From IMG/VR virus record IMGVR_UViG_3300020473_000031, positions 1 through 60,606 of that record: 60,606 nucleotides of DNA; one strand, written 5' to 3'. The notes beneath the pieces are model-generated. The model made no database searches. It was given only the letters and a program-made list of their open reading frames with translations, and was not told the origin of the DNA. Positions 6,701-37,700 of the stretch are shown piece by piece. The DNA is from a virus. Lineage: Duplodnaviria; Caudoviricetes. A program made the translations under genes and the position numbers. Each line of letters begins with the position of its first letter. Within the stretch, counting starts at the first letter, position 1.

Positions 6701-7531
6701 CGTTGCAATTGGTAATGTTGTTGATGCTGTTAGTCTACCATAATCATCAACTGTGTAGTTAGTAGCATTGACAGTTTCTGAACCTGCAATTGATGTTAGT
6801 GATGCTGCGTTATACTCAGCAGCAGTAACAGCAGTTGTGATAAGATCAATTGATGGATTATCATTAATACCAGCACCTTCACTAATTGCAATTCTTGTAG
6901 CAGTACCAGTAATAGTTCTGGTTTGCATAGCACCAGAACTTGTTCTAGCAATTAAACCAGTTGTAGTGAGAGCAGCAATTGCATTTAGATCATTATCATA
7001 TGGTTGAGCACCAGTTCCTTCTATACTTGTATCTAATCCATATGCAGCAAGAGTAGTTGGATTAGTTGCTGTTTTAATTCTTCCTTTAGCATCTACGGTA
7101 ACTTTAGTATACGTTCCTTCTGATTCAGCAGTACCATCATAATGTGGTAAAGTTGAAATTAGTTCTAAAGATGTAGATAAGTTTAAGTTTGTAGAACCAT
7201 CAAATACACCAGAAGCTTGAATATCATCAGAGAGTTGAATCTGACGTGTTGAAGCAAGTCGTGTAGCAGTAGAAGCATTACCAATTAGAGTTGATGTAAT
7301 AGTTGCTGCAGCAAAATTACCATCAGCATCCCTTTGAACCAATGTGTTTGCAGTATTTGATGTTGACTCAACTGGTCTCTCATACCTTAAAGAGTTCCAC
7401 GCTGAAACGCCATCTCCGATTTTAAATCGACCAGTGTCTAATTCTATCCCTAATTCACCTTGTGCCAATGTAGGGTTTGAGTTTGCCCATTCCTGAGCAC
7501 CACCTCTTCTTAACTGTATTCTATTTGCCAT
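719..7531 (-). CDS. Long tail-fibre-like virion protein (2270 aa) with Mtd-type N-terminal domain
   Basis: The N-terminus IQLRRG...W...NPTLAQGELGIELDTGRFKIGDG...WNSL resembles the major-tropism-determinant N-terminal domain. The rest has Gly/Thr/Asp-rich fibre repeats, EGS-NLYYT repeats and GxGY beta modules. A late promoter lies upstream. Confidence 0.8.
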   Translation of the reverse strand: MANRIQLRRGGAQEWANSNPTLAQGELGIELDTGRFKIGDGVSAWNSLRYERPVESTSNTANTLVQRDADGNFAAATITSTLIGNASTATRLASTRQIQLSDDIQASGVFDGSTNLNLSTSLELISTLPHYDGTAESEGTYTKVTVDAKGRIKTATNPTTLAAYGLDTSIEGTGAQPYDNDLNAIAALTTTGLIARTSSGAMQTRTITGTATRIAISEGAGINDNPSIDLITTAVTAAEYNAASLTSIAGSETVNATNYTVDDYGRLTASTTLPIATATQGTTAAAYDNAATYSRNDQITNASNLYQAIADVVAGAGAPTHTDATDAGSWRWLGASATPQKGLASFDQEDFDVSAAGHVTFAAGAIDNDQLQNSRISFADGNSKEDFDLDQELTATSGYRGFNYLNYVKVNDTSGNLLFGANNTGDSGAGEVDINARLYFSDADITLDGAVAQTLDKTGDGNLTFQTTQNSTSARSLSILATNSGTGTSTVTISAEDVVDIDASDAGGKVHVENLRFQGDYMGGTGDILIDPNDDRDVTGLVTIRGNLQVDGTTTTVNSTVTTLDDPIITLGGDTAPASDDSKDRGVEFRYYDSSAKVGFFGYDDSANDLGGHSGAFTFLYDATNTSEVFAGTDAGLIAGNLKLTTNTNSTSNTTGDLVVAGGAGIGDDVNIGGSVDIDTNLTVHGTTLHDDNIVIQGASKVLQLNNGSGTNRIELQSTTGNASFYGVVDITNNLNINSNKFNVVAASGNTAIAGTLTVSDETIVKADNKTFKVQTAAGVDKFVVDTDNGDTNTEGKLNVADLVHFESTDNPDILSGAPHTIQNSDYGALRVDGGAYFDKNVLFNGDLYLNGDFNQQEDATENYGLRNYLSVRYKLRAGSVGAYTPSYSNHNTSNLRVYGGAGINTSLHVGGTGSGEGLFVGKKNSGDSIKFQVLGASGDITSEGDLVQNGNSEFNGTVDVDADFAVRSGTTDKFFVDNATGNTDISGTLTVDAAAELNSTLNVDAGATFQDNVTINADNKMFKIQNNSSVDKFVVDTDNGNTETQGTLTVQGQTNIIDSLVINAANEVFSVQNGSAVAKFEVDTDNGNTNIIGTLTVGDATQINDTFGTSGVNTFTNNTQQTLTGSYAADGAIRLTGGAAIGKNLAIGEGLRVYGNTELSSALDLNANADVSGNFVISNTQDATSLADSSVALQVSGGATIDKNTYIGGNFVVYDATNTRSAFTVTNTSGDGEFHNDLTVGGNLIVNGSTTTVNSTVTTLDDPIITLGGDTAPASNDAKDRGVEFRYYDGSAKIGFFGYDRSANQFSFITDATNTSEVLAGTDGALRAGSLNLTAAGTALDVDNNVNVDGTITVDGQVISNLSTGTAPFSIASTTKVNNLNVDYLDNMTTASANTASTVVNRDASGDFAANQITAASATGAGAGFLGNATTADAWKTARVLTIDGVVNGNVSIDGSAAVTLTTTYDDADITALAAQTGTGYMVRTAANTYAHRTFGVTANSGITLTNADGVSGNTTINVASASSNAANNLVIRDGSGDFAANEITSDLVGNLTGATSTAKDLNPAADSTYDLGTSSVRWQGIFADAANITAITGALTGNVTGQVSDISNHDTGDLSEGSNLYFTNERVDDRVNALIVAGTGITKVYDDAAGTYTLTVTQADVNTDNVTEGSTNLFTTAARTRTHFTYGTGITHDGSGALSVTQSDINTDNVTEGSTNLFTTATRTRTHFTYGTGIKLATADLAIDFTEFDTDNITEGSSNLYYTDARADARIAAADTGDLTEGSNLYYTDARADARIAAADTDDLSEGSTNLYYTDTRANARVAAATGANLDLSSKSTTDLSEGTNQYYTEARVQAKLDNAFEQLSAMLNNLATSTTLVLNLSGDPTPGSVVTLGSIATDGVGGFSNATGVATSGGTGSGLTVDTTTVGGVVTAIALNAAGSGYEIGDTLTITNPNLGGVSTLNLGTLVGGTGYTTATAVATTSSGSGTGATVDITATNGVLTNVSVNAAGSGYANGETLTIANANASGVKTLGSIATAGTGYSAGTVATTASGSGTGLTVSITVDGSGAVTGVTIVDDGLNYAASETITLTNANASGVKTLGTISAAGTGYTEGTTTGVATTSSGSGTGLTVDVTANASGNVTAVAINVDGSGYAASEVITITGGGGDATIPVSAIHGNGATIPVSAIHGTGASLNTSTTFTNATFALSDITTMEVGATVTGGTSGSTGVITALGATSVTVDNVDGFFKKGETVGANDVTNLTIQSFA
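955..1015. repeat. 25-bp perfect direct repeat (period 36) encoding ATIPVSAIHG twice
   Basis: TACCATGTATAGCAGAAACTGGGAT at 955-979 and 991-1015. Confidence 0.9.
1140..1592. repeat. 33-bp identical direct repeat between two fibre modules (420 bp apart)
   Basis: CCTGTTCCTGATCCAGAGGATGTTGTAGCAACT at 1140-1172 and 1560-1592. Confidence 0.85.
1965..2705 (-). repeat. Seven EG(S/T)xNL(Y/F)xT fibre repeats
   Basis: LSEGSNLYFT, VTEGSTNLFTT (x2), ITEGSSNLYYT, LTEGSNLYYT, LSEGSTNLYYT and LSEGTNQYYT in the 2270-aa protein. Confidence 0.85.
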
Positions 7532-17008: not shown

Positions 17009-20000
17009 TTACGAACGGAGTTGTGCAGAATACTCAATTCTACTGAGTCTATAAGTAGCACCACCGTTACCCATTATATCTTCTCCACCCATAACTACTT
17101 GAGCAGCTGCTCCACTTCCAGTAGAATCACCAACTGCATTAACGAAAGTTACTGTTGGGTGTGTATTATATGTATTGTCAACAGATTGCACAATTCCATA
17201 ACCACCATTGACAATAGTACATGAAGCAACTTGGTCTTGTGCAGATGTTAAATTAACAGTTGCTGTACATTGTATATCACCAACATTCTCAACTGTTACT
17301 GTTGGAACTGCTGTATAGTTAGTACCTGGACTTTGAATTATAAAATCAACCACGGTACTATCATGTGAAAACTCATACAAGTATCCACCTATACCTACAT
17401 TAACATTACCAGTATTAAACGGAGTTATATCCTGAACTATAAGTACAGAATTAACTGGATCCCAAGAAACTACAGTTGCTCTAACACCAGAAACAGATCC
17501 AGTAACAATTTCGTTAACACCAAAATTCAATCCATTAGAAAGATTAGGATCTAAGAATAATTTTATAAGTGCAGTATGTGGAACACCATCAGTTAAAGTA
17601 CCTGCATCACTAACTGTAGCATACTTAAATGGCAAACTACCATCTTTAACCTGATCACCAACTTGGAATAGGGTTGTATTTTGACCACCTTGGGTTTCTT
17701 CAATACCATACAATGAAGTATGGATACCACCATCAAGATTTATTTGATTTTCATAATCAGTTCCTGCATTAACAAGATCTATAATTCCATCTCCAGCACC
17801 ATCTAATTCATCGTTGTCTTCAAATTCTTTATCTATTATTTGAGATATTGGTTCTGTTAAAGCTATAATAAATGCACCTTCAGATGAATCTACATCTAAA
17901 AGAACATGAGGATTAAATCCACCTGGAGCAGATGCTGCAAGACCAGCATCAAATTGAACAATAGCATCTTCAGTTGATGGTATTCCAGCATCAATAAATG
18001 CCAATTCATCAACTTCAAATGTTACTAATAATTCTCTAGTTGTTGGATCCCAGTCATATACCTTTGCAACCTTATTACCTTCATTTTCAATTTTTCTAAT
18101 AACTCTATCATTAACATTAAACTTATAAGTTGAATTACCCTCACCATCAATCTGTCCAGCATCAAGAACAATTCTCTGGTCAAAATTAAAATTAACTCCT
18201 CTAGTTAAACCAGAGAATTTACCTTTAGATTTAGCAGTATATGCAATGGTTTCTTTGTTAAGAATTAATTCACCAGAACCAGGGAAAGCATCAGTAGAAT
18301 CAACATACAATTCAGTATCAGATTTTAATACATCCTTAACAAGACCAGTGAGGAAACCAGCAACAGAATTGTATGCCTGTCTTGCTCTTGACTTACGTTT
18401 TAAGTTAACTAATTTTGTGAATATTACTTTAGGTTGATCAATATATCCGCTACCTGGATCTGTAATTTCAATATCAGTAATAACACCTTGAGCAACTTTT
18501 GCTATAGCTTTAGCACCAATACCTCCACCACCATTAATAAGAATATAAGGAGGTTCTTGATAATATTCACCTTCATCTACAATATTAATATTAGTAACTC
18601 TACCAAGTACATCAATTTCAGCAGCACCTTGAGCACCTTGTCCTCCACCACCTTCAAAGATAAGTGTTGGTGGTGTAGCATAATCTCTTCCACCTTGTAA
18701 TAGTGATAAACCTGTAACTGTCTGTACAGTAGGTGTTCCTGTAGCACCAGTACCCTCTCCACCTAATATTCTTGCAGTTGCTGCACCAAAATAATTATCA
18801 CCTTTTTTGGTCATCTTAACATAACTGACAGTACCATCAGTATTCAATACAACATCTCCTGCTGCACCATCTGGGAATGTATCTGGTTGAGCAGGGACAA
18901 TATCACCCTCAAACAATGGAGTACCATACATTGTTGGTCCAATTGCATAAGGATAAGTTGGAACACCACTACCGTTTTCTGTTAAGAAATAAGCATAAGT
19001 TCCATTAGGATACTCAGGAGTAACAGCAAATTTACCATTATGTTCATCCAAAGTACCAACACTAGTATCCCAAATATAATCTTGAACTAAATCTCCAATT
19101 ACATATCCATCTTGAACTGTTCTTATACCAATACCAGAAGTTGTATAACCAAAGGTATACAAAGCAAGAGGTGCAGTTACAGGTACTTCAAATCTTATCT
19201 CTCTTGCAGTAGCAGTATTAAACCCACTAATATAAGCACTATAAGTTACTTCGGATCCTTCTAACCAATAGGTAATACCTGGTCCTTCAAAAAGATATGT
19301 TGTATCTGGTGGAGTACCAGCATGCCATCCATCATCAGTAGTAGATATTAATAACTGTTCATTATCATTACTAGAATCATTCTGTTGGAATACATATGTT
19401 TTTCCTCTCCATAAACTTAAGAAAGGAACAGTGCTACCATCGATATTAAACTCACCATTAGCAACTGTTACAGCATAAGTTATAGTTTCTGCAGTAACTA
19501 CATCGGGTCTAGCACCAGCTAATTCATCACCTACTCTATATCTAAATCCAGTAACTTCTCTAGCAACGGTATTAGTACTATCATATCCATAAGGTCCGTA
19601 AATAGGATATCCATCAAATGCCATTCCTAATATCTTAGAATGACCATCAGCATGCCGTGAATAATCTATAGTAGAAGGATCAGATTCATTACTCTGATAA
19701 TAGTCTGTAATATAATAATCATTAGGTAAAGGATCATCATCTATTTCTAGATCCAAAGTCATATATCCTTCATGACCTTCATACCCAGACATATATCTGT
19801 GATACTTACAGTAATAATATATTCTACTATTTTCATCACCATTCATTATGAATAAAGGTTTAAACTCATTTTCATAATCTGTAGATGGTGCTTCTGTTAT
19901 TCCTGTACTCTTATAATATAAACTACCACCATTTAACAACCCATCCTGTGTGGTACTAAACTGCATAGGATGTCCATGAGGATGATGATCAGACGGTTGA

Positions 20001-21511
20001 TTAGTTGAATCGGATTGATTCCAAATAATTAAATAATTTCTCTGTACCTTAATATTTTCTGGTGCAAAATAATATTGTCCCTCAACAAAAGGACCAAACT
20101 CTGTAGAATCTGGACCAAACTCAATATAAAAAATACCGTTAGTTAACGTTGTTGGTGGTTCTAATATTTTAAAACTAAACCCAGTAGATCCTAAAACAAC
20201 ATTATTCTCAGCAAACACATCAGACCCACTTATATTTCTAACATAGATGTGGGTTATAGTTCCTAAATTATTTCTTACAATCTTTGCAATTTCTGCTTTA
20301 GCAGTAGTAGCTATAGCATCTATAGTTCTACCTCTCTCAACTACACCTAAAGTTTCATCAACATTACCAACTTCAAACATCAAGTTATCAAATTCTGTTT
20401 TAATGTTCCAAGTAAAAGGTCTAATCTTACCCCAATCAAACACACCATTATGTTCAGCAAACTCAGAAATCAATCTAGATGATTGATAGTAATAAGTATT
20501 ACCATCTACTACTGCATCAGAAGAAGTGTTACTTTTAATATGTGAATGTTTAACTGCATCAATTGAAAATCCAGGAGTAGGATTTCCAGCTTGACCCCAT
20601 TCTGGAGTATGAAGTTGAACTCCATTTGCCATTATACCTAATGACTTATTAAGTTGCTCTTGTCTAGCATCAGGATGAGGAGCATCTTTACCACCCCTAA
20701 AAATATAAGTTTGATCAAATGAACGATCTACTAATGATCCACCACTACTAACTGCACCAAAAGTAGCAGACTTAAAGGTATGAGCACTAGTATTAGTTGC
20801 AGGAGCAACACCCAATACTTGTACGGTAATAGTTGTAGATGTTGTAGAAAGAATTGGTATAGCAACACCTGCTACTGGATCAGTTGCACGAGGATATGTA
20901 TGATCAGTACCATGATCATCTAAAGCACAAGTAAACGTTAATGAATCTGTTGCAATCTTAATACTATCACCTGTAGTATAACTATGACTACCAATGGTCA
21001 TTTCCATTAAACCAGTAGTAGGGTTGTAGTTAATTGCTGAAGGTGTATACTGAGCAAGAGTACCACCAGATCCACCACCAGGAGCTCTTTCTGCTAAAAG
21101 GGGTGTTGGTTTTGGATGATTATCACTTTGTATTCTTAATCTATCACTATTAGAAGTGAATAATCCAGTTGTAGGTGAATTGGGATGTGACTGCCATATC
21201 CTATTAATATCAAAAGATTGTATGACAGTTGGTGTATCTTGTGTTGGTATTATTTGCAATCTAAGAGGATCATATCCAAGACCTCTTTCTAAAACTCTAA
21301 CATGAACTATCCTTCCAGATAACTCATCAATAATTGGATATAGAAGTGCTTCCTGTGTCGGAGTACCACAACCAGTAACAGTTAATCTTGGAGGATTGGT
21401 TATATCATAACCTTCACCACCATCAACTACTTGTATTGCACGAACACCAAATTTTTCATCAAATATGGGTTCAATTACAGCACCGTATCCAGGAACAGTT
21501 CTTGTTGACAT
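17009..21511 (-). CDS. Virion structural protein (1500 aa) with YHYH-type domain, cupredoxin-like domains and GxGY beta repeats
   Basis: HSKILGMAFDGYPIYGPYGY...GTLDEHNGKFAVTPEYPNGTYAYF...YPYAIG (YHYH family); HPMQFS...YYYCKYHRYM; located between gp7 and gp8. Confidence 0.78.
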   Translation of the reverse strand: MSTRTVPGYGAVIEPIFDEKFGVRAIQVVDGGEGYDITNPPRLTVTGCGTPTQEALLYPIIDELSGRIVHVRVLERGLGYDPLRLQIIPTQDTPTVIQSFDINRIWQSHPNSPTTGLFTSNSDRLRIQSDNHPKPTPLLAERAPGGGSGGTLAQYTPSAINYNPTTGLMEMTIGSHSYTTGDSIKIATDSLTFTCALDDHGTDHTYPRATDPVAGVAIPILSTTSTTITVQVLGVAPATNTSAHTFKSATFGAVSSGGSLVDRSFDQTYIFRGGKDAPHPDARQEQLNKSLGIMANGVQLHTPEWGQAGNPTPGFSIDAVKHSHIKSNTSSDAVVDGNTYYYQSSRLISEFAEHNGVFDWGKIRPFTWNIKTEFDNLMFEVGNVDETLGVVERGRTIDAIATTAKAEIAKIVRNNLGTITHIYVRNISGSDVFAENNVVLGSTGFSFKILEPPTTLTNGIFYIEFGPDSTEFGPFVEGQYYFAPENIKVQRNYLIIWNQSDSTNQPSDHHPHGHPMQFSTTQDGLLNGGSLYYKSTGITEAPSTDYENEFKPLFIMNGDENSRIYYYCKYHRYMSGYEGHEGYMTLDLEIDDDPLPNDYYITDYYQSNESDPSTIDYSRHADGHSKILGMAFDGYPIYGPYGYDSTNTVAREVTGFRYRVGDELAGARPDVVTAETITYAVTVANGEFNIDGSTVPFLSLWRGKTYVFQQNDSSNDNEQLLISTTDDGWHAGTPPDTTYLFEGPGITYWLEGSEVTYSAYISGFNTATAREIRFEVPVTAPLALYTFGYTTSGIGIRTVQDGYVIGDLVQDYIWDTSVGTLDEHNGKFAVTPEYPNGTYAYFLTENGSGVPTYPYAIGPTMYGTPLFEGDIVPAQPDTFPDGAAGDVVLNTDGTVSYVKMTKKGDNYFGAATARILGGEGTGATGTPTVQTVTGLSLLQGGRDYATPPTLIFEGGGGQGAQGAAEIDVLGRVTNINIVDEGEYYQEPPYILINGGGGIGAKAIAKVAQGVITDIEITDPGSGYIDQPKVIFTKLVNLKRKSRARQAYNSVAGFLTGLVKDVLKSDTELYVDSTDAFPGSGELILNKETIAYTAKSKGKFSGLTRGVNFNFDQRIVLDAGQIDGEGNSTYKFNVNDRVIRKIENEGNKVAKVYDWDPTTRELLVTFEVDELAFIDAGIPSTEDAIVQFDAGLAASAPGGFNPHVLLDVDSSEGAFIIALTEPISQIIDKEFEDNDELDGAGDGIIDLVNAGTDYENQINLDGGIHTSLYGIEETQGGQNTTLFQVGDQVKDGSLPFKYATVSDAGTLTDGVPHTALIKLFLDPNLSNGLNFGVNEIVTGSVSGVRATVVSWDPVNSVLIVQDITPFNTGNVNVGIGGYLYEFSHDSTVVDFIIQSPGTNYTAVPTVTVENVGDIQCTATVNLTSAQDQVASCTIVNGGYGIVQSVDNTYNTHPTVTFVNAVGDSTGSGAAAQVVMGGEDIMGNGGATYRLSRIEYSAQLRS

Positions 21512-21517
21512 ATCTTA

Positions 21518-22744
21518 TTAACCAACTACGTTAATAGTTCCTTGCATTGCTGCATGGAGTGTACATTGATAATAAAGAGTACTTGGAGCATCCATTGGAA
21601 CTGTCCAATAAAGAACTGCAGTTCCACTACCAGTCTGACCTGTAGTATAAGGAGTTCCAGTTAAACCTTGAGTACTTTGAATTCTAAATGGGTGTGCAGT
21701 TGCTTGGACAGTATTATCAAAAGCATATGTTAGACCTCTCATAACATAAAGAGTTGCATCAGCAGTAGCAGATGCAAATCCAGGTCCATTAAACGTATAA
21801 TCTGATGCACCATTAGCATTCAATTCCCACCATGTAATAGGACTTCTAGTCGCAATCCAATTAGTACCATTAAAGAATAGTGAATCACCTTGAACTGCTC
21901 CACTCAAATCAGTATCAGTTAATGCTGATAGCGTAGTAGTTAAAGTACCACTGAAATCTACTGTTAATGTATCCCCAACAACTGTCGTTGTTATATTAGT
22001 TCCACCAGCAATAGTTAACGTATCTGCCTGTGCATTTGCTGTTGTAGATCCAGTATCACCATCAACGGTGGCCCATGTATTCAATGATGAAAGACCAGAT
22101 TCATCATCTTGAGGAGTCCATTTACCAGCAGATGAACTCCACTTTAAAACTTGTAAATTTGTAGGAGCAGCAGTTGTTGTATCTACATCCCCTAATAAAT
22201 CAATACTAGAATATTCAGTTGCTATCTTTGCTCTAACATCCCCAACACCACCAGTAGTGATATTAATATTCACATAAGGATTATCATCACCATCAACAGT
22301 GAAAAAATAACCTCCGTAAGATGCAGCAGAAGGTGCATTTCCTAATGCGGAAAATTCATTCTTATACTTAACTTTGGTTGGCATATCAATAACACCATCC
22401 GCACCTGCAAAAGTATTAGTAATACCACCAACACCAATAGTTAAATTACCAGTACCATTTGCAGCAATATTAATATTGCCATTACTAGAAGAAACTATAG
22501 AGTTACCATTAACGTCTAATGATGATGTTAAATTAGCATAGTCAGATGGAGCGAATTGAGATCCATTGTACCTTAATACTTGCCCTACTGCAGGGTTAGT
22601 AACATCAACAGTTATATTAGTACCATTACCAATAGCAGAATATATTTCATTAAAATTATCGTTTATCTTGTCGCCTCCACCACGCAGGGTATCCCCTGTG
22701 TTATCATTAGCTACCGTACCAAGATTTAGTGATTGTTTGGCCAT
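21518..22744 (-). CDS. Baseplate protein with gp9/gp10-type N-terminus and C-terminal cupredoxin-like domain
   Basis: MAKQSLNLGTVANDNTGDTLRGGGDKINDNFNEIY matches the T4 gp9/gp10 N-terminal motif; C-terminal HPFRIQ...LYYQCTLHAAMQGTINV. Confidence 0.78.
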   Translation of the reverse strand: MAKQSLNLGTVANDNTGDTLRGGGDKINDNFNEIYSAIGNGTNITVDVTNPAVGQVLRYNGSQFAPSDYANLTSSLDVNGNSIVSSSNGNINIAANGTGNLTIGVGGITNTFAGADGVIDMPTKVKYKNEFSALGNAPSAASYGGYFFTVDGDDNPYVNINITTGGVGDVRAKIATEYSSIDLLGDVDTTTAAPTNLQVLKWSSSAGKWTPQDDESGLSSLNTWATVDGDTGSTTANAQADTLTIAGGTNITTTVVGDTLTVDFSGTLTTTLSALTDTDLSGAVQGDSLFFNGTNWIATRSPITWWELNANGASDYTFNGPGFASATADATLYVMRGLTYAFDNTVQATAHPFRIQSTQGLTGTPYTTGQTGSGTAVLYWTVPMDAPSTLYYQCTLHAAMQGTINVVG

Positions 22745-25700: not shown

Positions 25701-28700
25701 TATTTCTAGCAAAAGCTATTGTCCTTACATTACCTGGTGAATTGAACCAAGTGTAACTACTACCAACACCATTTACAGAAACAGTTGCTAATGCATTAGA
25801 TTTTGTTCCAGTTAATGAAGTATTAGATATCCAAGGAGTTCCTACAAATTCACCAACAACTAAGAATTTAGTGTCTGAATTATATTCTAGAACCTTAGCA
25901 GATCCCTTGTCAGAAGTAATTAATTCACCAACTTCAAATCTTCCAATAACACTTTCAATTGTTATATTATGAGCAATAGAAGAATCACTGATATCTGTAG
26001 TTAACAAATCATGACTCATATTAGTGATAATACTATCAACCCAATCATTATATTGCCAAGTATTAAGACCAAACTGTGCATTAACTAGAGTTGTAATTTC
26101 TTCCTTATAATATCCTCTATTATAAATGAGGTTCTTAGCAGCACCCCTCATAGGTCTCTTACCTGGAACAATGAGATTAATTGCAGTATTAACTAATTCT
26201 TTAATCCTAGTTCCAACTACTGTCATATCAGTAGGTGTTTCACTATCAGTATATGGATCGTCAAATGAATGTACATAAGCATAAAGAGGATCAACTGATG
26301 AACCACCTTTAATTCTTAACTCACCTTTAACAGCATGCTCACATAAGAATCCTAATTGCTCTATAGCATAAACTGTTGCTAGAAGCTCATCTTCAACATT
26401 AATGATTTGCATCTGAGAAGACAAATAGTATTCCATTGCAGCAACGGTACTATTATTACCACCAGTCTGTAAGTCAGATATTATACCCAATATAATAAGT
26501 TTCAAATCTCTCTGACATGTACTTTCTCCACCTGGTTCTGGATAAGAGAAAGCAAACTGTTGAGAAGTATCCAACATGTAAGTAAACTCTGCTCTTGTTA
26601 AACCAGTAATTTCAGATGAAATACCATCTCTATTAAAGTAAAGTCTATCAGCAGCAATTGCAAAATCAGCATTTGTAGGAGCAATAATATCATTTGCAAT
26701 AGTTACTAAGTTATCAATAGCATCAGTAACGTTTGCACAATCTCCAGGAGCAGTTACACAATCGGTAACAGCACTCTGGAATGTATGTAATGTTGTGTTA
26801 GAAGAAGTTCCAACATTAACAGTAATTGTAGTTGCTGTTATATCAATAATTTCAATATTCTGTAGATATACAGGGTCTGTAGTTCTAGGATATGTGTGAT
26901 CACTACCATTACTATCTTCAAGACAACGGAATGTTAATCCATCAGTTGCAATTCTTATCTTTCTACCTTTAACTAAAGTATGAGAACCAATAGTTAACTC
27001 TAATTCACCTGTTGTTGGCTCATAAGTTGCTCCAGTTGGAGTAAATGATTGAGAATTAGATTGTGTGATTCCCCAAGCACCAACAATGATCTTATCAGTA
27101 TTACCTGTTGTTAGATCACCATTAACTGCTTGCTTCATATAGAATGCAAGACGCTCATGGGCATAAGCAGACTGGAATACTTGTAATCGAATATGTAGTA
27201 GAATATCATTAGTACCAAGATATCTCTTAGCAACATTTACAGTATTAAAATTACCACCATCTCTAAGATCTTTAATAAACTCTTGAAGAATTAACGCTAG
27301 GTCAGTCTTACACTGTAATGTACCAGCACCACTTCCATCAAAGTTTCTAGGCATATCCAAAGCAAGATCTGGATAACGCTCTAACATATCATTAGATGCT
27401 TTATCAACAATAGGACCAGCATTTAACTGAACTAAATTAGCAGCATCTATAAATCTATACTTACCTGCAGCACCAATCTGATTAGTAAACATGATATCTT
27501 CTGTACCATCATGCCAATTAATTGGGAACTCTTCTTCATAGTAAGAGTATATTCTACCACCAAGGAATTCGTGTGGAGGTGAATACTTAACAAGACTACC
27601 AAGATAATCAAGAGGTGGATTCTGTATTGCAGCATCTAATGTATCTGTAACAATACTAATTAAGTTCTCTATAGTTGTTTGTACATCAGTACAATCAGAT
27701 GTGTTGTAATTAAGAATCTTAATTCCATTTGCAGTTGTTTGTGCAAAATTGTGTATTGTTAATTGATGCTTAACTGATCCAGGATCACAAGATACAAATG
27801 TATGTGATGCTTGTGGAGTGTATGAAACAGTATTAGAACCTTGGTTACCTACAAATGTATGTGTGTAATCACCACCAGTAGAAATAACTGCTCTAGTAAT
27901 ACAATTAGCAATTGTAGAATGATATGTATGTGCAGTTATATTGGTAGAAGGAGTTACATCTAATACCTGTATATCAAATGTATTAGTTTGTACATTTGAA
28001 ATTGGAATATACTTACCACTGATAGGATCAGTAGAGCGTGGATATGCATGAGTTGTTGCATAATTATCATGAGCACAAGTAAATTTCAATCCACCATCAG
28101 CAATCTTAATATGCTCACCATTAACAAATCCATGATCGGCAACGGTTATAGTAATTACACCAGTAGTAGGATTATATGATGCAGTAGAAGGTGTATATGT
28201 ATTATTTGCATTCTGGAATACATGAGTTGTTGTATTACTTGAAGTTCCTACATCAAGTGTAACAGTTGTAGGAGTTACAGCAGTAATATTAACTGCTGTA
28301 TTCCATGCAGGATCGTTACCAGATGCACCATTTTGACCATTTGCACGAGGATAAGAATGATCAGAACTTTGACCATCTTGATCGCAACGGAATATAAGTG
28401 AATTATTAGCAATTCTAACTGCTGTACCAGCAGTTAAACTATGGTTACCAATAGTAACAGTAAGAAGTCCAGTTCCAGGAACAAATGATGCATCAGTTAC
28501 ATCATATCCCTTAATAGGAGATTTACCAACATTAACTGTAATTACACCACTCTGTCTTCTAAGACCTTTAGTAGAAGCCTTTTGGAATACGTGTGTTGTG
28601 GTATCAGATGAAGTACCAACATTAATTTCAAATGTATCATTAGTCTTATTGGAAATTGGTAACCATCTACCACTAGCATAATCTGTAGATCTTGGATATA

Positions 28701-31700
28701 CATGATCAGTACTATTACCATCAAGCAAACATCTCAATGTCAATGATTCATCAACAATCTGAACATAATCCCCATTAGAATATCCGTGTGCAGGTACGGT
28801 TAGAACCATCAAACCAGAACCAGGAGTATACACTGCATTGGTTATTGTTGCGTGTGTATGACCTACATGAGTAATTGGAATAGACTTATTATCTCCATAT
28901 GGATCTGTTGAACGAGGATAATCCTTATTAGAACCATTACCATCCATTCCACATGTGAATCTTAAACTACCATTTGCAATAGTAACGTTTGCACCAACTC
29001 TCATACCATGCTGACCAATTGTTAAAGTCATCTCACCAGTCTTAGCATCATAAGATGCATCAGAAGGTGTAAATGTTTGGTCTGCTTGTGCAACACCTAC
29101 ATTAAGACTAATTGTATTAACTGTGGTTCCAAGAATCTTAAGTTTCTTTCTTGCTGCACGAACATCATGTCCTGGACGTGGATAAGACTTAGTAGTCTGA
29201 TTGTTATCCATTGCACAAGTAAATTTAATAGAATTATCTTCTAATGTCACATAATCATCTTGAGTTAATGGATGTCCCTCAATAGTTAATATTAATATAC
29301 CAGTAGAAGGATCGTATGTAGCAAAGGAAGGTGAATATGCAGTATAATTTCTATTATCACCAAAAGTAGTACTACCAACATTTACAGTAAATGTATCAGC
29401 AGTGTAATGAGTAATAGGTAATGCAGACTTGTATGCTGGATCTGTTGTACGAGGATATGGATGAGTAGTTTCAGCACCATCCATATCACAAGTAAACTTA
29501 AGTGCATCAGGTAAAATTTCTATTGCCTGGCCTTGCTTATAGATTCCATTAATAGTTGCAGATTTAAATGTATGGTTATAAACACCACCTGTCATAAGCA
29601 CCGCCCTATGAACACCACCTGTAGATGCAGATACAAATGTATGAGCATCAGTATTGGTAGAAGGTGTAGAATCTAATACCTGAATAGTAAATGTATCAGT
29701 CGTTACATTACCGATAGGTACATACTTACCGCTAATTGGATCAGATGATCTAGGATATGATTTGTCTGTTGCACTACCACCGAAACTACAATTAAAGACT
29801 ATGGAATTATCATCCATCATAATATGATCACCAGCTTCAAATCCATGATTAGGAATTGTAAGGGTCATTACACCTGTAGTTGGGTTGTAAGCACCATTAG
29901 TTACTGTATAAGCACTAGGAGAAACAAACTCATGTCTGTATATACCACCAGCAATAACAGCATTCTTTCTAGCACTAGCAAATGTATGAGTGTGATTTCC
30001 ACCAGTTCTCAAAATACCTCTAGTGATACTATTAGAAACAGCAGATACAAATGAATGTGTATCAGTGTTTGTGGAAGGTGCTACATCTAATACTTGTACA
30101 TCAAATGAATTAGTTTGTACATTAGAAACAGATAACCATCTACCACTAGCAGGGTCAGATGATCTTGGATAATCCTTCTCTGCAGCAGTACCAGATGCAC
30201 CACCAAATGCACAACTTAACTTAATAGCACCGTCATCAATCATAACTTGCTCACCATTTGCCATATTATGATCATTAACAGTGATAGTCATGACACCTGT
30301 AGTTGGGTTGTAAGCAGCATTAGTAGGTGTTAACTTAGTTGCAGCAACATAATTATGAGTAGTTGTATCAGTCGATATACCAACATTCAAATTAATGACA
30401 CCAGTTTGACTATGAAGACTACTATCTAAAGCAGATACAAATGTATGTGTCGATAAATCACTAGACTTACCAATATAAACATCGAATGAATCTGCTAAAA
30501 CATTACTTAATGGTAACCACTCATCGAATGATGGATCAGTTCTTCTTGGATATGAATGCTCACTAGCACCATTATCCTTACCACATGTAAATGTTAATGC
30601 GTTTTCAGCAAGTTTGATGCATGAATTTGCTTTGGTTAATCCATTAGCAACAGCAGATACAAAAGCATGTGTAGTTGTATGTGAAATTGCTGCTGGACCA
30701 AACATGTTACCAACATTAACTTCAAAGAAGTTTGTACTTACATTGAATATTGGTAACCATCTATTACTTGCGAAATCAGATGCTCTAGGATAATCATGAT
30801 TACTTGCATTACTATCCTTATCACATGTAAATCTTAAAGATCCATCAGCAAGTTTAACTCTATCTCCGTCTTGGAAACCATGACCAGCAACAGTAAGTTT
30901 CATTACACCAGTAGTAGGTGTAAATGTTGCAGCAGTTACTGTGTGGTTAGTTGATAATGCAAATCCATGATTTACTAACTCGATGTTCATAACACCAGTA
31001 GCAGGAGTATATGTTGCTAAAGTTGGTGTATGTGCATTAGTTCCAACTGATGTAATAGGAACTGGTTTGTTATATGCATAGTCAGCACCACCAGGAGCAT
31101 TAGAACCTGATGCTCTAGGATATTTCTTCTCAGTAGTATTTCCATCACCATTAAAGTCGCATGTAAAGGTCATAGACTCTTCACCAATCATTACGGTTTC
31201 ATTTGTTCTGTATACTCCATTAGTAGAAGCAGTTACAAATGTATGGTTATAATCACCACCAGAAATTACTGCGTCTTGAGATGTACCACCAGTCCAATTA
31301 TGGGCAGTTACATCAGATGAAGTACCAACATTAAATGTTATTGTTGTTGCACTCTTAGCAGTAATTACTACAGGAGTTCTCCATGCAGGGTCAGCAACAC
31401 CAGCATTCTGTATAAATCCTGTTTCTCTAGGATATAATTTAGAAATTGTATCTCCATCAAGACCACAACTAAATGAGAAACCATAATCCTTAAGCATTAT
31501 TGGCTCACCAACTTCAAGAGTATGGGATCCGATAGTTGCTTCAATAAGACCAGTAGCAGGATCATATGTTGCAGTTGTTACATCGTGTTTTACGAGAGGT
31601 GAAGAACCAACATTAACTTTAAATGTATCAGTTGTTATTCCTACAACTGGCAACCACTTATTGAATGATGGGTCTGTAGATCTTGGATATTGCTTATTAG

Positions 31701-34700
31701 TTGCATTACCATTCATTGTACATGTGAATGTAATGCTATTTTCTGCAAACTTAATGTAATCACCAACAGAGAATCCATGATTAGCAACAGTAACAGTCAT
31801 AATACCTGTTGTTGCCTCATATGATGCAGTTTCTGCTGTATACTGAGATCCACCACGAAGGTAATGATTTCCAATACTCATTGCCATAGAACCAGTACCA
31901 GGGTTATATGTCACTGATGATGGGTTATGTGAAACAGTAGGTGACTTACCAACATTAACTGTAATATAACCAGTTTGTACTTTTAAACCACCACCAGTTG
32001 CAGTTTGATATACATGTGTTGATGTGTCAGAAGACTTACCAACATTAAGAACAATAGTATTAGAATCTGGTGCAGATGTAATAGGAATCCATTGCTGATG
32101 AACAGGGTCACTTACTCTTGGATATGTGTGATCAGTTGCCTGTGCATCTTTATCACATCTAAATGTAATTGAATTATCATCAAACTTAACTGAATCTTTT
32201 GCTCTCTTTACGCAACTTGAAGTAGCAGAAATAAATCTATGGTCACTTAAATCTTGTGATTTACCAATATTAACTGTAAATCTATCTATATGTACATTCT
32301 GTACAGACAACCACTTCAAACTAGAAGGATCAGTTGATCTAGGATATGTGTGTTGCGATCCATGATTATCCTTACCACAAGTAAAGGTTAGGCAATCGTC
32401 ATCAAGTAGAACTCTATCACCATTATCAAAACTATGACCAACAATAGTTAACTCTAATTCACCAGTAGCAGGGTTATAAACTGCATCAGTTGGTGTATGT
32501 GTTGTAGCAGGATTAAGATTATGTCCAGTAACAGTTAGACTCATCTGTCCTGAAGTTGGTGTATAAACTGCTCCAGTTATAGTCTTACTTGTCTCACCAA
32601 CATTAGTAATATTGAGTGCATGCTTACGAGATGGATCAGTCAATCTAGGATAACTATGAGATGTTGCATTACCATCCATAGAACATGTAAATGATAATCC
32701 ATTATCCGCAATTTGTATTGTTTGATTCTCTAAAAGGTTATGTATTCCAACATTAAGAACCATATCACCAGTAAGAGGATCATATGTAGCACCAGCAACA
32801 TCATATCCAACTCTAGGTGACTTACCAACATCAAATGTTATACTTCCATCTCTCTTAGTAATTCCATTTGTATAAGCTGATTTGAATATATGTGATGAAG
32901 TATCAGGAGAAATTCCAACATTAACATCAAATGTATTAGCACCTACATTAGATACTGCTAACCACCTTCCATTATAAGGATCTGTTGATCTTGGATATGA
33001 ATGCTCAGTTTCTTGATTATCTAACTGACATCTAAATGTTAATGAATTAGTAGCAAGTTTAATTCTATCCCCATTAAGAAGTCCATGCTTATTAGCAACA
33101 ACACCATTAGTAAGAGCACTATGGAAGATATGTTCATAATCACCACCAGTGTGTATACAACCAGTAGTAGCACCAACCCAAGTGTGGGTATCAGTGTTAG
33201 TTGAAGGAACATTCTCTAGAATCTTAACAGTAATAGCATTAGTAGTAGCTGATTCAATCTTTACTGCAGTATCATAGAATGGGTCTGTAGATCTTGGGTA
33301 AGACTTCTTAGCAGCATCGCCACTAGCACCACCAAATCCACAACTAAAGGTTAATGATTCTTTTGCAATCTTAATACTTGTACCAGCAGTTAATCCATGA
33401 GGAGTTGCAAATTCCAACGTCATCATACCTGTTGTTGGATTGTAGATACCATTATTAGGTGTTAATTGTACTTTAGGTGAAATACCAACATTAACCGAGA
33501 ATGAATGTGTTTGAACATTAGTAATAGATAACTGAAGTCCTCTCTTAGGATCAGTTGTTCTAGGATAAGCATGAGTACTATAGTGATCATCCATAGCACA
33601 TGTAAATGTTATAGCACCATCTTCTAATCTTATAGTATCACCAGCTTGCATTCCATGATCAGGAATGGTTAAATTCATCATTCCATTAACAGCATTATAT
33701 GTTGCATCAAGAGGAGTAAATGTCTTACCAGCAGTAATCTTCATTACACCTGTTGTAGGTGTATAGTTAGCAAATGATGCACTTAGTTGCTCACCATCAT
33801 ATGCAATTGGAGTAGGCTTACCTGCAATTGGATCTGTAGTTCTAGGATACTTCTTAACAGCTTGCAATCCATCACTTGTACATCTGAAGTAAATTGAATT
33901 AGGTGCAATCTTAACGTTAGTTCCTGGAGTTAATATATTATCACCTATCTGTAACTTCATATGACCAGTAGATGCATCATAAGATCCACCAGTAGGATTG
34001 AAGACTAATAAAGGTGATTTACCAACATCAAGATCAAAACTATTTGTTTGTGAATTAGAAACAGTTAACCAACCAGCAAGTGCTGGATCTGATGCTCTTG
34101 GATACTTATGCTCAGTCTTATGACCATCCATATCACAAGTAAAGGTTAATGACTCTTTCTCAAGCATTACCTTGTCACCATTCTGGAATAAGTGACTTGC
34201 AGATGTTACAGAAAGAATTCCAGTTTCAGCATTATATGTTGTACCATTTTGTACTGTTATTGCTCTTCTACCAACTAATCCATGACCTACCTCAGTAAGT
34301 GTTAAATTTCCAGTATCTGCATCATAAGTTGCACCAGTAGGTGTCTTATAAGTAAATGACGTTGTAGAAGAATCAGTAATAGTTGTATCAGTGTATTGCT
34401 TTAATCCATGATCACCAACTGGTTTCCACTCACTATTAGTAACAATAAACTCTAACATTTGATCGAGTTTATTATAAGCCCAAATAGTTTCTCTAACTTC
34501 TGTTTCTATATTAAGTAGTTTTACATTTGCTGTATCAGCTCTATCAATATAGTATGAAACGGCAAGCCAAGTCTTATTGTTACCACCATTACGCATATCT
34601 GCTACGATAGATCTACAGATATCTTTAACATCATCCTCACAATTAACATCCCCACCAATAACAGTAAAGTTAGGGAACTTTTGATTAATCATGTATACAA

Positions 34701-37700
34701 CTTCTTTCGCAATAAATTCTAAGTTCTTAAGAATTAATTGTCCAGCATTATTGTATCTGTGGCTATTCTTAACAAATCCTTGTTGAATTGCTACACCAAC
34801 ATTAACTGTAATTGTAGTAGCAGTTACTGCAGTAATTGCAATTGCAGTATCATATACAGGGTCAGTTATACGTGGATAAGTATGCTGAGTAGCATTATTA
34901 TCCATTTCACAAGTAAATGTTAATGAATTAGGAGCAATCTTAACAGTATTTGATGTTGTGTAACTATGAGATCCTATAGTTAATACTAAATCTCCTGTTA
35001 AACCATTGTAAGTAGCATCAGTTACATCTTTTTCAATTATACCTTGTTGAATGATAACAGCACCACTTACAGTACCACCAGTATAGGTATGCTTACCAAT
35101 ATAACGTCTAGAAGCTACAATAGGATCATTATTAAAGTATTCCTTATTACTAAATGATTCTCCACCAGACCAATCATCAACAAACTGATCTCCATCAGAA
35201 CTATCAAAGTGTAATAATACCTTAGTATCAACATCACCTTGATGAATACCTGCAGGAGGAGTAAATGCAGCAGTATATCTTGCTACATCAGAAATTCTAA
35301 ACTCATCAATATATCCAGCAAATGAATTAGTTGCTGCATAACTAGATCCAATTCTAATTGGTCTAGCAACATATGTACTACTGTCTGTACCAGATCCTAC
35401 TTCAACTCCATCAAGGAATAATTTAACCGTTGTTCCAGATCTACTTACAGCAATATGATACCAAGTATTATTAGTTGGAATTACAGTAGCACCAGAAGTT
35501 ACAATATCAGAACCATTAACATTGTAACGAATCTGAGCACCATTTAAATAAATTCTACCAGAGATTTCAGGATCAGATGTTCTAGTATCATAAATTTCAG
35601 CAAGACCTGCTAATGCAGCAGTATCTGGTCTGCACCAAAATTCAATAGTATATTCACCTGTACCAAAAGCCATCTCACTTGTAGATGCAACACTAATATA
35701 ATCTCCAGAACCATCTAATTGAAGTGAAGTATCACCAAACTTCTTCTGTGTAGAAGAAATTTTAGCATCATTTGTAAAGTCAAACTCGAAATAATCTTCA
35801 CCATTTGACTTACTTCTACCTATTTTACCTAAGTAAACAATTCCTCTTGCTTGATTATATCCAATAACTTCTGCTTTAGTATCACGAGTTCTAATTATTT
35901 GACCTGCATTAAAGAATCCTTCACCCTCTTTATCATACATTGATATCTTTCTAACTCTACCAGCTTCACCAGCAGTAAATTCTCCAGTATTATTACCATA
36001 TTCTATCTTGTAATTTCTAATATCTTCACCAATTTGTAATGTTCCTACTGCATTAGAGTAAGGAATGATATAGTTACTAACTATCTCATTTGATGGGAAG
36101 TTAGTGTTGTATGCAGTTTCATTATCAGTGAAATCAACAATACTAATCTGAGACTTAGAAATATCATCTATAACTACGTTTGGATAAGATGTAGATGTAA
36201 TTCTGTTGAATAGTAGTCCAAAGAATGAAGATCCAGGAGAAATATCAACCTGACCAATAAACTCTCCAGTAACAGGATCTTGATACACACTAGCAGTTGT
36301 AACTCTAGATACAGTACCAGATTTAGCACCAATAATAACATCATTCAATTGAATATTATAAAGACCTGGTGTAGACTGATATGTACCAGCAGTCTTACTT
36401 AATGTAAGAGCCTCAGTAACGTTAATATCAGTACTATACATTGGAGAACCCTCTTGTTGGGCAGTTGCCTGAGTTCCTAACGTACCCCTAACTACAGTTA
36501 ATGTTGTGGAATCAAATCCATCAACAACTGAGAGTACTTCCATAATTTCAGCACCGATTCTAAATCCATCATTAACTGCCACATCTATGGTTCCAGCAGG
36601 AAGTGGTCCAGTACCATCAACAGGAACTACTTCAAATTCAGTAGTAGAAGGTCCAATAGCATAACGTAAATCACAAACTGGAGATTCAGCACCAGTTTCT
36701 AAGTTAATTTGTTCAACTTTAGCAGTATCACCTTGAAGATTAGTAACTGTTTCTCCGTAAATATACAATCCAATATTAGAAACAGCTGTAATATCAACTA
36801 GATTACCAGAGAATCCAGTTGCAGAAACAGTACATAATTCACCAGGAATGAATGTACCTTCATCCATATATCCACTGATAATAGTACCAGTAACTGAAGT
36901 TACAATCAATCTAGCTTGTGAGCTAGTACCAACAAGACTATTACCAATAAGAGGGTAAATACCACTTTGGTTATTCCATGTTAAATCCCATGTTTGAATT
37001 TGACTAATAGTAAGATTAGCATATTTAACACTAGCAGGTGGTGAAGGTGGTTCAGAGAATACTATAGAATCACCTTGTATTTGGAATGATGTATTTGGAT
37101 TTTGTACAATACCGTTAAGAACGATCATTAACTGGTTTGCATTAGCAACTACAGTTCCACCCTCAACTGTTAATGGGAATGCAATTCTTTCACCATCAAA
37201 TAAGTGATCAATATTATCAACACGTTGAACAACAGAAGTTAGAATATTCTCAGAAGATGTCAATCTCTTTTGACGGAATAAAACTTCAGTATTATTAAAT
37301 TCTGAATAAATTGGCTCAACTAGAGCAAAACTTTGAATATTAGGAACAACTGCTTCTTGAGCAAGTTCAACTGATTTAGTTAACTGGAAGAATGTCTCCT
37401 TATTAGGAATTTGACCATATTCATTTAAGTTTAACTCACCAAACACCTTAAACGATGCAGGGTGAACATTTCTGATTAGAATTTCTTTCCACTCACTAAT
37501 AGAAACAGCAGACTTAACAGCATAAGAGAAGTCCTGATAGTAGTAAGAGTCTTGAATCTTCTGAATGATTTCAGATGGCTTACCAACATCATCAATAAAT
37601 TGACCAGTAGTTTTAGTAATAGAACCAATATCTAAGACACCACGAGCAACTTTAAGATCACTAATAATACCAGAAGACTTAGAAATAACACCAGTTATTC

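Follow-up and report, generated by a model that had tools for sequence, protein, structure and literature searches.

Introduction

In the T-even bacteriophages, the genes for the gp38 adhesins and the tail fibers exchange segments at conserved glycine-rich motifs (Tetart et al. 1996, 1998, as cited in Trojet et al. 2011, PMC3157838). We describe here a comparable arrangement in a 60,606-bp stretch of viral DNA (Duplodnaviria; Caudoviricetes) that constitutes the entire IMG/VR record IMGVR_UViG_3300020473_000031 (estimated completeness 34%) and that we refer to as the window: the gene for a 1500-residue baseplate wedge subunit of a T4-like cyanomyovirus carries an in-frame, 111-codon module (the YPR module), related copies of which fill the neighboring gp7-type gene. 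As in gp38 and gp37, the setting is a T4-type phage, and short, conserved coding motifs rich in glycine enclose a variable piece of a host-contact protein; in the present case, the motifs are APGGG and L[IV]DR[ST]F, and they contain the breakpoints of one allele, L020. Judged from L020 (one contig) and from an approximately unbiased (AU) test (p 4e-34), module and flanks differ in their history, and the L020 breakpoints lie in or close to the motifs. The two systems differ in that here a whole (predicted) folded domain of 111 residues is either present or absent, whereas in gp38 one hypervariable loop is replaced by another, and in that the protein here is a baseplate wedge subunit known from sequences alone, whereas gp38 is a fiber-tip adhesin.

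Immunoglobulin (Ig)-like domains are reportedly promiscuous accessories on phage structural proteins, the subject of an article by Fraser et al. from 2006 entitled 'Ig-like domains on bacteriophages: a tale of promiscuity and deceit'. Like them, the YPR module is a small, dispensable beta domain that is spread over unrelated virion proteins (here gp7, the wedge subunit, a gp9-like protein, and tail-fiber PHROG families) and is patchy among close relatives; unlike them, it is predicted to form a closed beta-barrel and is inserted in a loop and nested in itself, not appended. Barrels inserted into a host domain are also seen in the phi92/K1F endosialidase, in the P22 coat protein (the I-domain), and in E1 (the FCCH domain), and these are the best structural neighbors of the module, yet they score Z under 8 with 11–17% identity, and we claim no homology. 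Modular shuffling in T4-type genomes mediated by promoter early stem-loop (PeSL) elements is said to have been described by Arbiol et al. in 2010. In that system, short repeats flank a cassette, as they do at this locus, and were proposed to mediate its gain, loss, and exchange in T4-type phages; there, however, intergenic promoter/stem-loop repeats move whole genes, whereas at this locus a protein domain is inserted in frame, between repeats that are not conserved.

Few viruses in the ocean are as abundant as the marine T4-like cyanophages, whose host recognition evolves in baseplate proteins. The locus offers a natural example, resolved to the base pair, of a baseplate protein that is conserved except for a whole folded domain, which can be there, be missing, or be exchanged laterally, and it ties an optional domain to the unannotated module family of the giant gp7. 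It also corrects a tempting over-reading, in that the 10-bp repeat at the module edges is not an insertion scar, and it suggests a testable rule, namely that conserved glycine-loop codons act as crossover points. It is a new example of domain-level modular exchange in phage host-contact proteins, of which the self-nesting barrel family is the more unusual object; a domain family with a self-nested architecture and without a Pfam model merits structural work. Literature searches found no published description of the module, of its nesting in cyanophage gp7, or of this indel; in passages of Sullivan et al. 2010 (PMC3037559), high divergence is all that is noted of gp7, and passages of PMC9910659 give general context only on selection on cyanophage baseplate genes.

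Results and Discussion

The module is a discrete insertion in a conserved glycine loop

We think it probable that the module is an optional beta-barrel domain in a glycine loop that was captured once and has since been exchanged between alleles by short-patch homologous recombination, the repeat at its edges being a by-product. The domain would occupy the conserved loop A-P-G-G-G-[P/S]-L-[V/I]-D-R near the N terminus of the cyanomyovirus baseplate wedge protein. It would derive from the module family that fills the neighboring gp7, having entered the loop in one ancient event and having then been inherited with the gene, and later gains and removals would result from short-patch homologous recombination when phages co-infect a cell, the homology lying in the conserved sequences that encode the loop on both sides. 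Such an exchange between alleles is seen in one case (L020), and we infer it for the others.

The initial annotation of the window had pointed out that GATCCACCAC (plus strand) occurs at both ends of the module, with 333 bp (111 codons) from start to start, and this was confirmed (coordinates are given in Table 1). The 10-mer has three exact copies in the window, the third of which lies within gp7, compared with 0.08 expected from dinucleotide shuffles, and 0 of 100 shuffles reach three; the match stops at 10 nucleotides (nt), with no extension on either side. On the coding strand, the repeat reads GT GGT GGA TC and encodes (G)-G-G-S at residues 146–148 and (S)-G-G-S at residues 257–259. Excision leaves the clean junction that had been anticipated, the deletion of residues 148–258 yielding ...ERAPGGGSLVDRSF..., and because of the 10-nt repeat the exact module boundary is ambiguous. 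When 15 open reading frame (ORF) translations were searched, the module matched only the 1500-residue protein and the product of the 8397-residue ORF. In a 35-sequence alignment, the loop residues P144, G146, L260, D262, R263, and F265 are invariant, and A143, G145, and G147 are conserved in at least 90% of the sequences; the APGGG loop is kept in empty alleles also, so that across alleles the variable segment is bracketed by the short conserved coding motifs APGGG and L[IV]DR[ST]F. The module is a discrete in-frame insertion in this conserved glycine loop.

Alleles that are empty at the exact insertion point had been predicted, and they are in the majority: among 92 orthologue rows (89 database proteins plus S-SM1, S-IOM18, and S-RIM2), 20 carry one module and 72 carry none, and the indel boundaries coincide with the repeats. 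Most empty alleles have the junction PGGGPL[IV]DR, as do all three of the aligned cultured orthologues (S-SM1, S-IOM18, and S-RIM2), none of which has the module. PGGGSLVDR, the predicted junction, is found in seven proteins, and the junction of P0096, ERAPGGGSLVDRSFD, is identical to the one predicted by deleting the interval. The absence of the module from the three cultured phages means that it is dispensable in infectious relatives. At the DNA level, 84 sources were surveyed, in four of which the site was missed by the motif search; the remaining 80 (79 loci and the window) comprise 15 with the window's type of module (group A), seven with a second type (group B), and 58 empty sites. Among the 60 best cultured-phage records, none has the module, every record covering 92–93% of the query in two to three pieces, and none was seen at the orthologous site among the orthologous rows of the 40 matches listed in a second search. 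Places with a coverage of at least 80% occur in four records; among the matches listed, two lie in another gene of P-RSM6.

Allele L020 appears to have acquired the module alone

We group the alleles into A (the window's), B (P0022–27), C (P0028), and D (P0036). In L020, the flanks are 93–100% identical at the nucleotide level to those of the empty allele L078 in all seven flank bins that have L078 sequence (about 1900 nt upstream and 226 nt downstream, in a P-SSM7-like background). The L020 module is 92% identical to the module of L024, whereas the flanks of these two alleles are only 70–79% identical. By comparison with L078, foreign DNA sets in at the GGA of CCTGGAGGTGGA or immediately ahead of it and extends through the first base of the codon preceding TTAATTGAT, that is, the breakpoints lie within GCACCTGG/A and G/CATTAAT, and the net change is +112 codons replacing one Pro codon, with no duplication. 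The strings shared at these junctions are ≤8 nt long, making an assembly chimera unlikely. The discordant module and the edge-hugging breakpoints of this one allele indicate that L020 acquired the module alone.

Group B is probably a second, older case of exchange. Its flanks are 79–94% identical to those of the empty sisters L064, L071, and L080, to which it is joined at support 100, with the exception of the 57 nt directly upstream of the module, which are 51% identical to the empty sisters and 91% identical to group A. Tract lengths thus differ between the two events, as is expected for homologous or homeologous recombination rather than for a site-specific reaction. In L064, L071, and L080, the diverged 57-nt patch encodes SPKPSIIDQEREPGGQ[DS]YL; an imprecise loss may have left this patch, or it may stem from conversion by a distant allele, for instance of the P0072/P0080 type (PGGSDTIVDR).

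Trees point to one capture followed by changes in presence

In a module tree of 88 rows, the nine distinct site modules, which fall into the four groups, form one clade (support 88) with the order (D,(C,(B,A))), and by this tree they share a single origin. Together with the 29–60% identity to the gp7 copies in the window, the clade indicates that the capture by the gene was single and old, and it argues against repeated hopping from gp7; the original capture came, we infer, from a gp7-type array. In a gene tree built without the module, module presence requires four changes, three of them forced by well-supported branches, and the result is the same for 92 rows (FastTree) and for 34 rows (IQ-TREE). 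The AU test rejects monophyly of the nine module-bearing rows (log-likelihood difference 255.7, p 4e-34), with the group defined from the trait and the test run after the tree was seen. Module presence is, as far as these trees go, non-monophyletic on the gene tree.

These results bear on an alternative in which nothing moves, a single ancient insertion is followed by vertical descent, and the patchiness reflects tree error plus one chimeric contig. That L020 is a single contig ending 226 nt after the module and that P0036 is a long branch would both fit, but we regard this explanation as very improbable: besides the AU test, the gene tree unites group B with its empty sisters (support 100), the flanks of both having 79–94% nucleotide identity, and a chimera would need long shared words at both L020 junctions, where the strings do not exceed 8 nt.

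Every group with the module falls in the same half (20 rows) of the 34-row gene tree, and the gene and module trees are congruent, which fits vertical descent plus later changes. Most empty alleles within this half read PGGGPL[VI]DR, as do those of the other half, in which the module never appears; replacement by an empty allele would bring this state back, and deletions arising independently would not. The congruence, with carriers confined to this half, could also mean that the module is ancestral there and that empty alleles arise by repeated precise deletion, for example through replication slippage or recombination between the Gly-Gly-Ser repeats. T4-type phages do delete between short direct repeats, excision between the repeats gives the PGGGSLVDR present in seven proteins, and the odd junction (PGGQ[DS]YL) and the 51% patch seen in group B's empty sisters are what imprecise deletion or repair might leave. 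We nevertheless hold repeated deletion to be unlikely: the Pro codon of the common empty junction would not return each time, the PGGGSLVDR alleles sit in backgrounds ∼65% identical to the window and are one C/T change away from PGGGPLVDR neighbors, no empty allele is nested in group A (14/14 rows carry the module), and L020 requires a gain. Moreover, no contig in four runs from four studies joins position 20745 to position 21079 (i.e., has the 333-bp deletion), contigs being a weak test, since only assembled contigs were covered and rare variants are dropped from these. A search of public runs listed 24, of which 20 contain the stretch; each of the four analyzed has one contig over 20400–21400 with 0 differences, and they may be source samples; in run X4, there are two joints (skipping 571 and 234 bases) that come from diverged contigs with short sides.

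The 10-bp repeat is a by-product rather than an insertion scar

The initial annotation had taken the repeat for a target-duplication or microhomology signature. A corresponding explanation would be that the module is an actively mobile in-frame cassette that leaves such a scar (GTGGTGGATC), the same process having built the nested gp7 array. It could draw on the location of all three 10-mers of the window at module boundaries, on four empty alleles with a single 10-mer at the site, on the presence of the module in several different structural genes and within itself, and on the L020 module, which moved alone with breakpoints at its edges. The repeat itself does not behave as a scar, however. 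It consists of Gly-Gly-Ser codons, and the caveat raised at the outset, that such codons favor chance repeats, is well founded: with the codon bias of the genome (Gly GGT 69%, GGA 28%), synonymous-codon resampling of the actual residues at both junctions gives a shared word of at least 10 nt in 2834 of 20000 cases (14.2%), and in seven large genes 7 of 18 GGS tripeptides are coded by GGTGGATC. The verdict on chance depends on the null, the repeat exceeding what is seen in shuffled DNA and being unremarkable given the residues and the codon bias.

The repeat is, in addition, imperfect in most carriers. In group A (n = 15), the right copy is invariant and the left copy varies at synonymous sites, leaving a perfect 10-mer in 5 of the 15 sequences (the window, L005, L007, L008, and L009); in group B, it is perfect in 0 of 7, where the ends read GGA GTT GGT GCT ... 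ATT GGC GAA GCA, and the protein sequences of P0028 and P0036 lack a Gly-Gly-Ser pair. Nothing is duplicated at the L020 junctions. For 11 uninterrupted gp7 modules, the boundary windows share 4–8 nt (mean 5.9), compared with a mean of 6.3 for mismatched left/right pairs. From the separate origins of the two copies, the codon bias, and the drift in the left copy, we conclude that the 10-bp repeat is a by-product, not a target-site duplication, the left copy coming from host loop codons and the right copy from the module's own S-G-G.

An active mobile cassette is further disfavored by the single clade of site modules, by the absence of inverted repeats at the module ends, and by the absence of a transposase, integrase, or endonuclease domain (Pfam) in the module; we consider it quite unlikely. 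There is no mobility gene among the 15 large ORFs of the window, which are structural genes, the record being only 34% complete, such that trans-acting enzymes could be encoded elsewhere. What stands of the proposal of a cassette moving between genes is that the module is discrete, occurs in several structural genes, and moved alone in L020; repeated hopping does not stand, and neither a mobility gene nor inverted repeats were found to go with it. The module is a real, occasionally exchanged domain cassette, with no sign of an autonomous element.

Two specific kinds of element were also considered and rejected. A transposon-like insertion with a target-site duplication is not compatible with a repeat that is not conserved, with the lack of inverted repeats and of an enzyme, and with the lack of a signature at the gp7 sites. 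For an intein, there is no Hint/intein Pfam match, the C-terminal junction S-G-G/S lacks His-Asn, and the predicted fold is a beta-barrel.

Points that weigh against exchange by homologous recombination

A number of observations count against the explanation that we prefer, a domain captured once and exchanged by short-patch homologous recombination. The L020 arrangement is known from one 7232-bp contig that ends 226 nt past the module; its junction 26-mer was found in JGI metagenome contigs in that same contig only, and there is no full-length protein with this arrangement among the matches listed (120 of 548). The true donor of the L020 module is unsampled, and the crossovers are bounded from the recipient side only. 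The breakpoints hug the module edges although longer identical stretches (11–14 nt) are available at a greater distance in the flanks, so that selection or a more specific mechanism may be involved. Because the trees are unrooted, they do not tell gain from loss for any of the changes. Four of the 58 empty alleles (L025, L026, L031, and L033) hold exactly one 10-mer at the site, which is also what target duplication predicts; these are distant alleles, and their 10-mer is GGG-S in preferred codons. Finally, a model of the N-terminal 425 residues (35 sequences) is poor, with a predicted local distance difference test (pLDDT) score of 45.4, too poor to place the insertion point on a surface loop.

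The module family fills a third of gp7 and is nested in itself

A module profile has 31 matches in the window, namely 30 in gp7 plus the inserted one, and 0 in the other 13 ORFs searched; in a tblastn search, the inserted module finds 24 places in the window's gp7 at 29–60% identity. The family makes up a third of the 8397-residue gp7. In many of the gp7 copies, a complete inner copy separates the N-terminal from the C-terminal fragment, with nesting up to two levels, and this layout establishes that the 'tree' described for gp7 in the initial annotation is real; the idea that the flanking-repeat signature had built it is not supported by the comparison of the 11 gp7 modules. In one nested example, an outer copy at residues 5050–5125 (profile positions 3–78) resumes at 5330–5340, and within it lies a copy at 5124–5150 plus 5255–5329 (profile positions 4–30 and 32–105) that is itself split by a complete copy at 5151–5256. 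Interruption points recur near profile positions 30, 75–78, and 86–88.

The module is also found in other phages. In P0046, an 863-residue gp9-like protein of another phage, about 510 residues with four YPR modules are inserted internally (BLASTP), and the conserved N- and C-terminal parts (residues 1–217 and 728–862) align with the window's 408-residue gp9-like protein; by this alignment, P0046 exemplifies, independently, the in-frame insertion of modules inside another baseplate gene. The module further occurs inside five PHROG families of very large virion, baseplate, or fiber proteins (phrog_701, 5342, 1276, 18802, and 2885). Its exclusive occurrence in virion, tail, and baseplate proteins, together with its dispensability, suggests that the module is an accessory domain for contact with the host surface, and it would likely be exposed at the baseplate periphery, where it would modulate that contact.

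A more far-reaching idea, which we hold to be doubtful, is that the YPR barrel is a true cassette system in which glycine-linker codons at the module edges serve as portable recombination sites, such that single folded domains are copied between structural genes (gp7, the gp9-like gene, the wedge subunit, and fibers), between alleles of different phages, and into loops of other module copies. It predicts the breakpoints at the L020 edges, the 10-mers at module boundaries (where all three of those in the window lie), and the four-module insertion in the gp9-like gene of P0046. If true, the nested gp7 tree would be both the reservoir and the product of an undescribed, domain-by-domain remodeling of the cyanomyovirus host-contact surface.

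The module is predicted to be a small self-folding beta-barrel

An AlphaFold (AF2) model built from 19 natural copies is all-beta with nine strands (pLDDT 85.7, predicted template modeling score 0.79), and the module is accordingly predicted to be a small, self-folding all-beta barrel. G22, H31, C50, and Y61-P62-R63 are invariant in the aligned module segment (alignment A3), and these Gly, His, Cys, and Tyr-Pro-Arg residues suggest a conserved site, perhaps for a metal or a ligand. A Thr and an Asp are nearly invariant as well in the 19 copies, which are 33–96% identical to the first sequence.

No Pfam family covers the module, with no match to Ig, FN3, or BIG2, and a Foldseek search against the PDB gave no match at E ≤ 0.001 (2m5s was at rank 7). 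The nearest structures in a wide VIA-align search are E1 FCCH (4p22_B, Z 7.6), a phage FCWL1 neck protein (Z 7.1), and the phi92 endosialidase barrel (4hiz_A, Z 6.9, root-mean-square deviation 2.6 over 83 residues), where Z under 8 is the range of common arrangements and sequence identities are 11–17%. The top rows are closed barrels, with no Ig-fold entry among them, and a missing match does not exclude a fold.

Genomic context and the host gene

The window carries the baseplate gene block of a T4-like cyanomyovirus, with the whole block on the minus strand (Table 1). The 1500-residue gene sits between the gp9-like and gp8 genes, and the same block also encodes a 2450-residue DUF4815 protein. 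One further protein starts with an Mtd_N domain; Mtd_N (major tropism determinant, N-terminal) is a family known from the targets of diversity-generating retroelements.

Table 1. Coordinates of the module, the 10-mer copies, and the surrounding genes in the window
Feature	Position	Strand	Basis or remark
In-frame module, 333 bp/111 codons, residues 148–258	20738..21070	-	Missing at exactly this point in 72/92 orthologue rows
Left (N-terminal) repeat copy, codes G146-G147-S148	21069..21078	-	Within the host gene's conserved PGGG loop
Right (C-terminal) repeat copy, codes G257-G258-S259	20736..20745	-	In alignment A3 (columns 128–138), SGG matches the [ST]GG at which two gp7 copies end
Third 10-mer copy, codes R-G-G-S, gp7 residues 5369–5371	31847..31856	-	Where an N-terminal module fragment meets the beginning of the next module (QYT...)
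Array of about 30 module stretches in gp7, residues 4311–7073	26743..35031	-	Profile search
Host gene of the insertion, 1500-residue baseplate wedge subunit	17009..21511	-	phrog_708 (E=0); PF14240
gp9-like baseplate wedge/tail-fiber connector, 408 residues, without module	21518..22744	-	PF07880; phrog_677
gp7-type baseplate wedge protein, 8397 residues	22768..47961	-	Pfam Baseplate_wedge, YHYH, Laminin_G_3; P-SSM2 relatives annotated gp7
gp6	47968-49992	-	Baseplate block member
gp8 baseplate wedge subunit, 510 residues	15438..16970	-	PF09215
2270-residue protein with N-terminal Mtd_N domain (E 3.6e-13)	719-7531	-	Pfam

The phrog_708 match to the 1500-residue protein consists of two stretches, interrupted at the module. 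In S-SM1, S-IOM18, and others, the orthologues bear the annotation 'baseplate wedge subunit', and the nearest cultured relatives (S-SM1, S-RS29, P-RSM4, and S-SSM5) show 66–68% protein identity. The protein has a YHYH domain (PF14240) at about residues 805–846, and YHYH is found in gp7 as well; the two neighboring genes thus have more in common than the YPR module.

The same gene has a second presence/absence site, where about 205 residues follow residue 648 (about 19565–19570 in the window), between ...GYPIYGPYGYD and REVTGFRYRV.... This segment is carried by P0010 and P0014 of group A and by P0023 and P0024 of group B and is absent from the window, P0027, P0096, and P0109, that is, it is patchy inside both group A and group B. 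A third indel of the gene, of 30 residues, lies near residue 1408.

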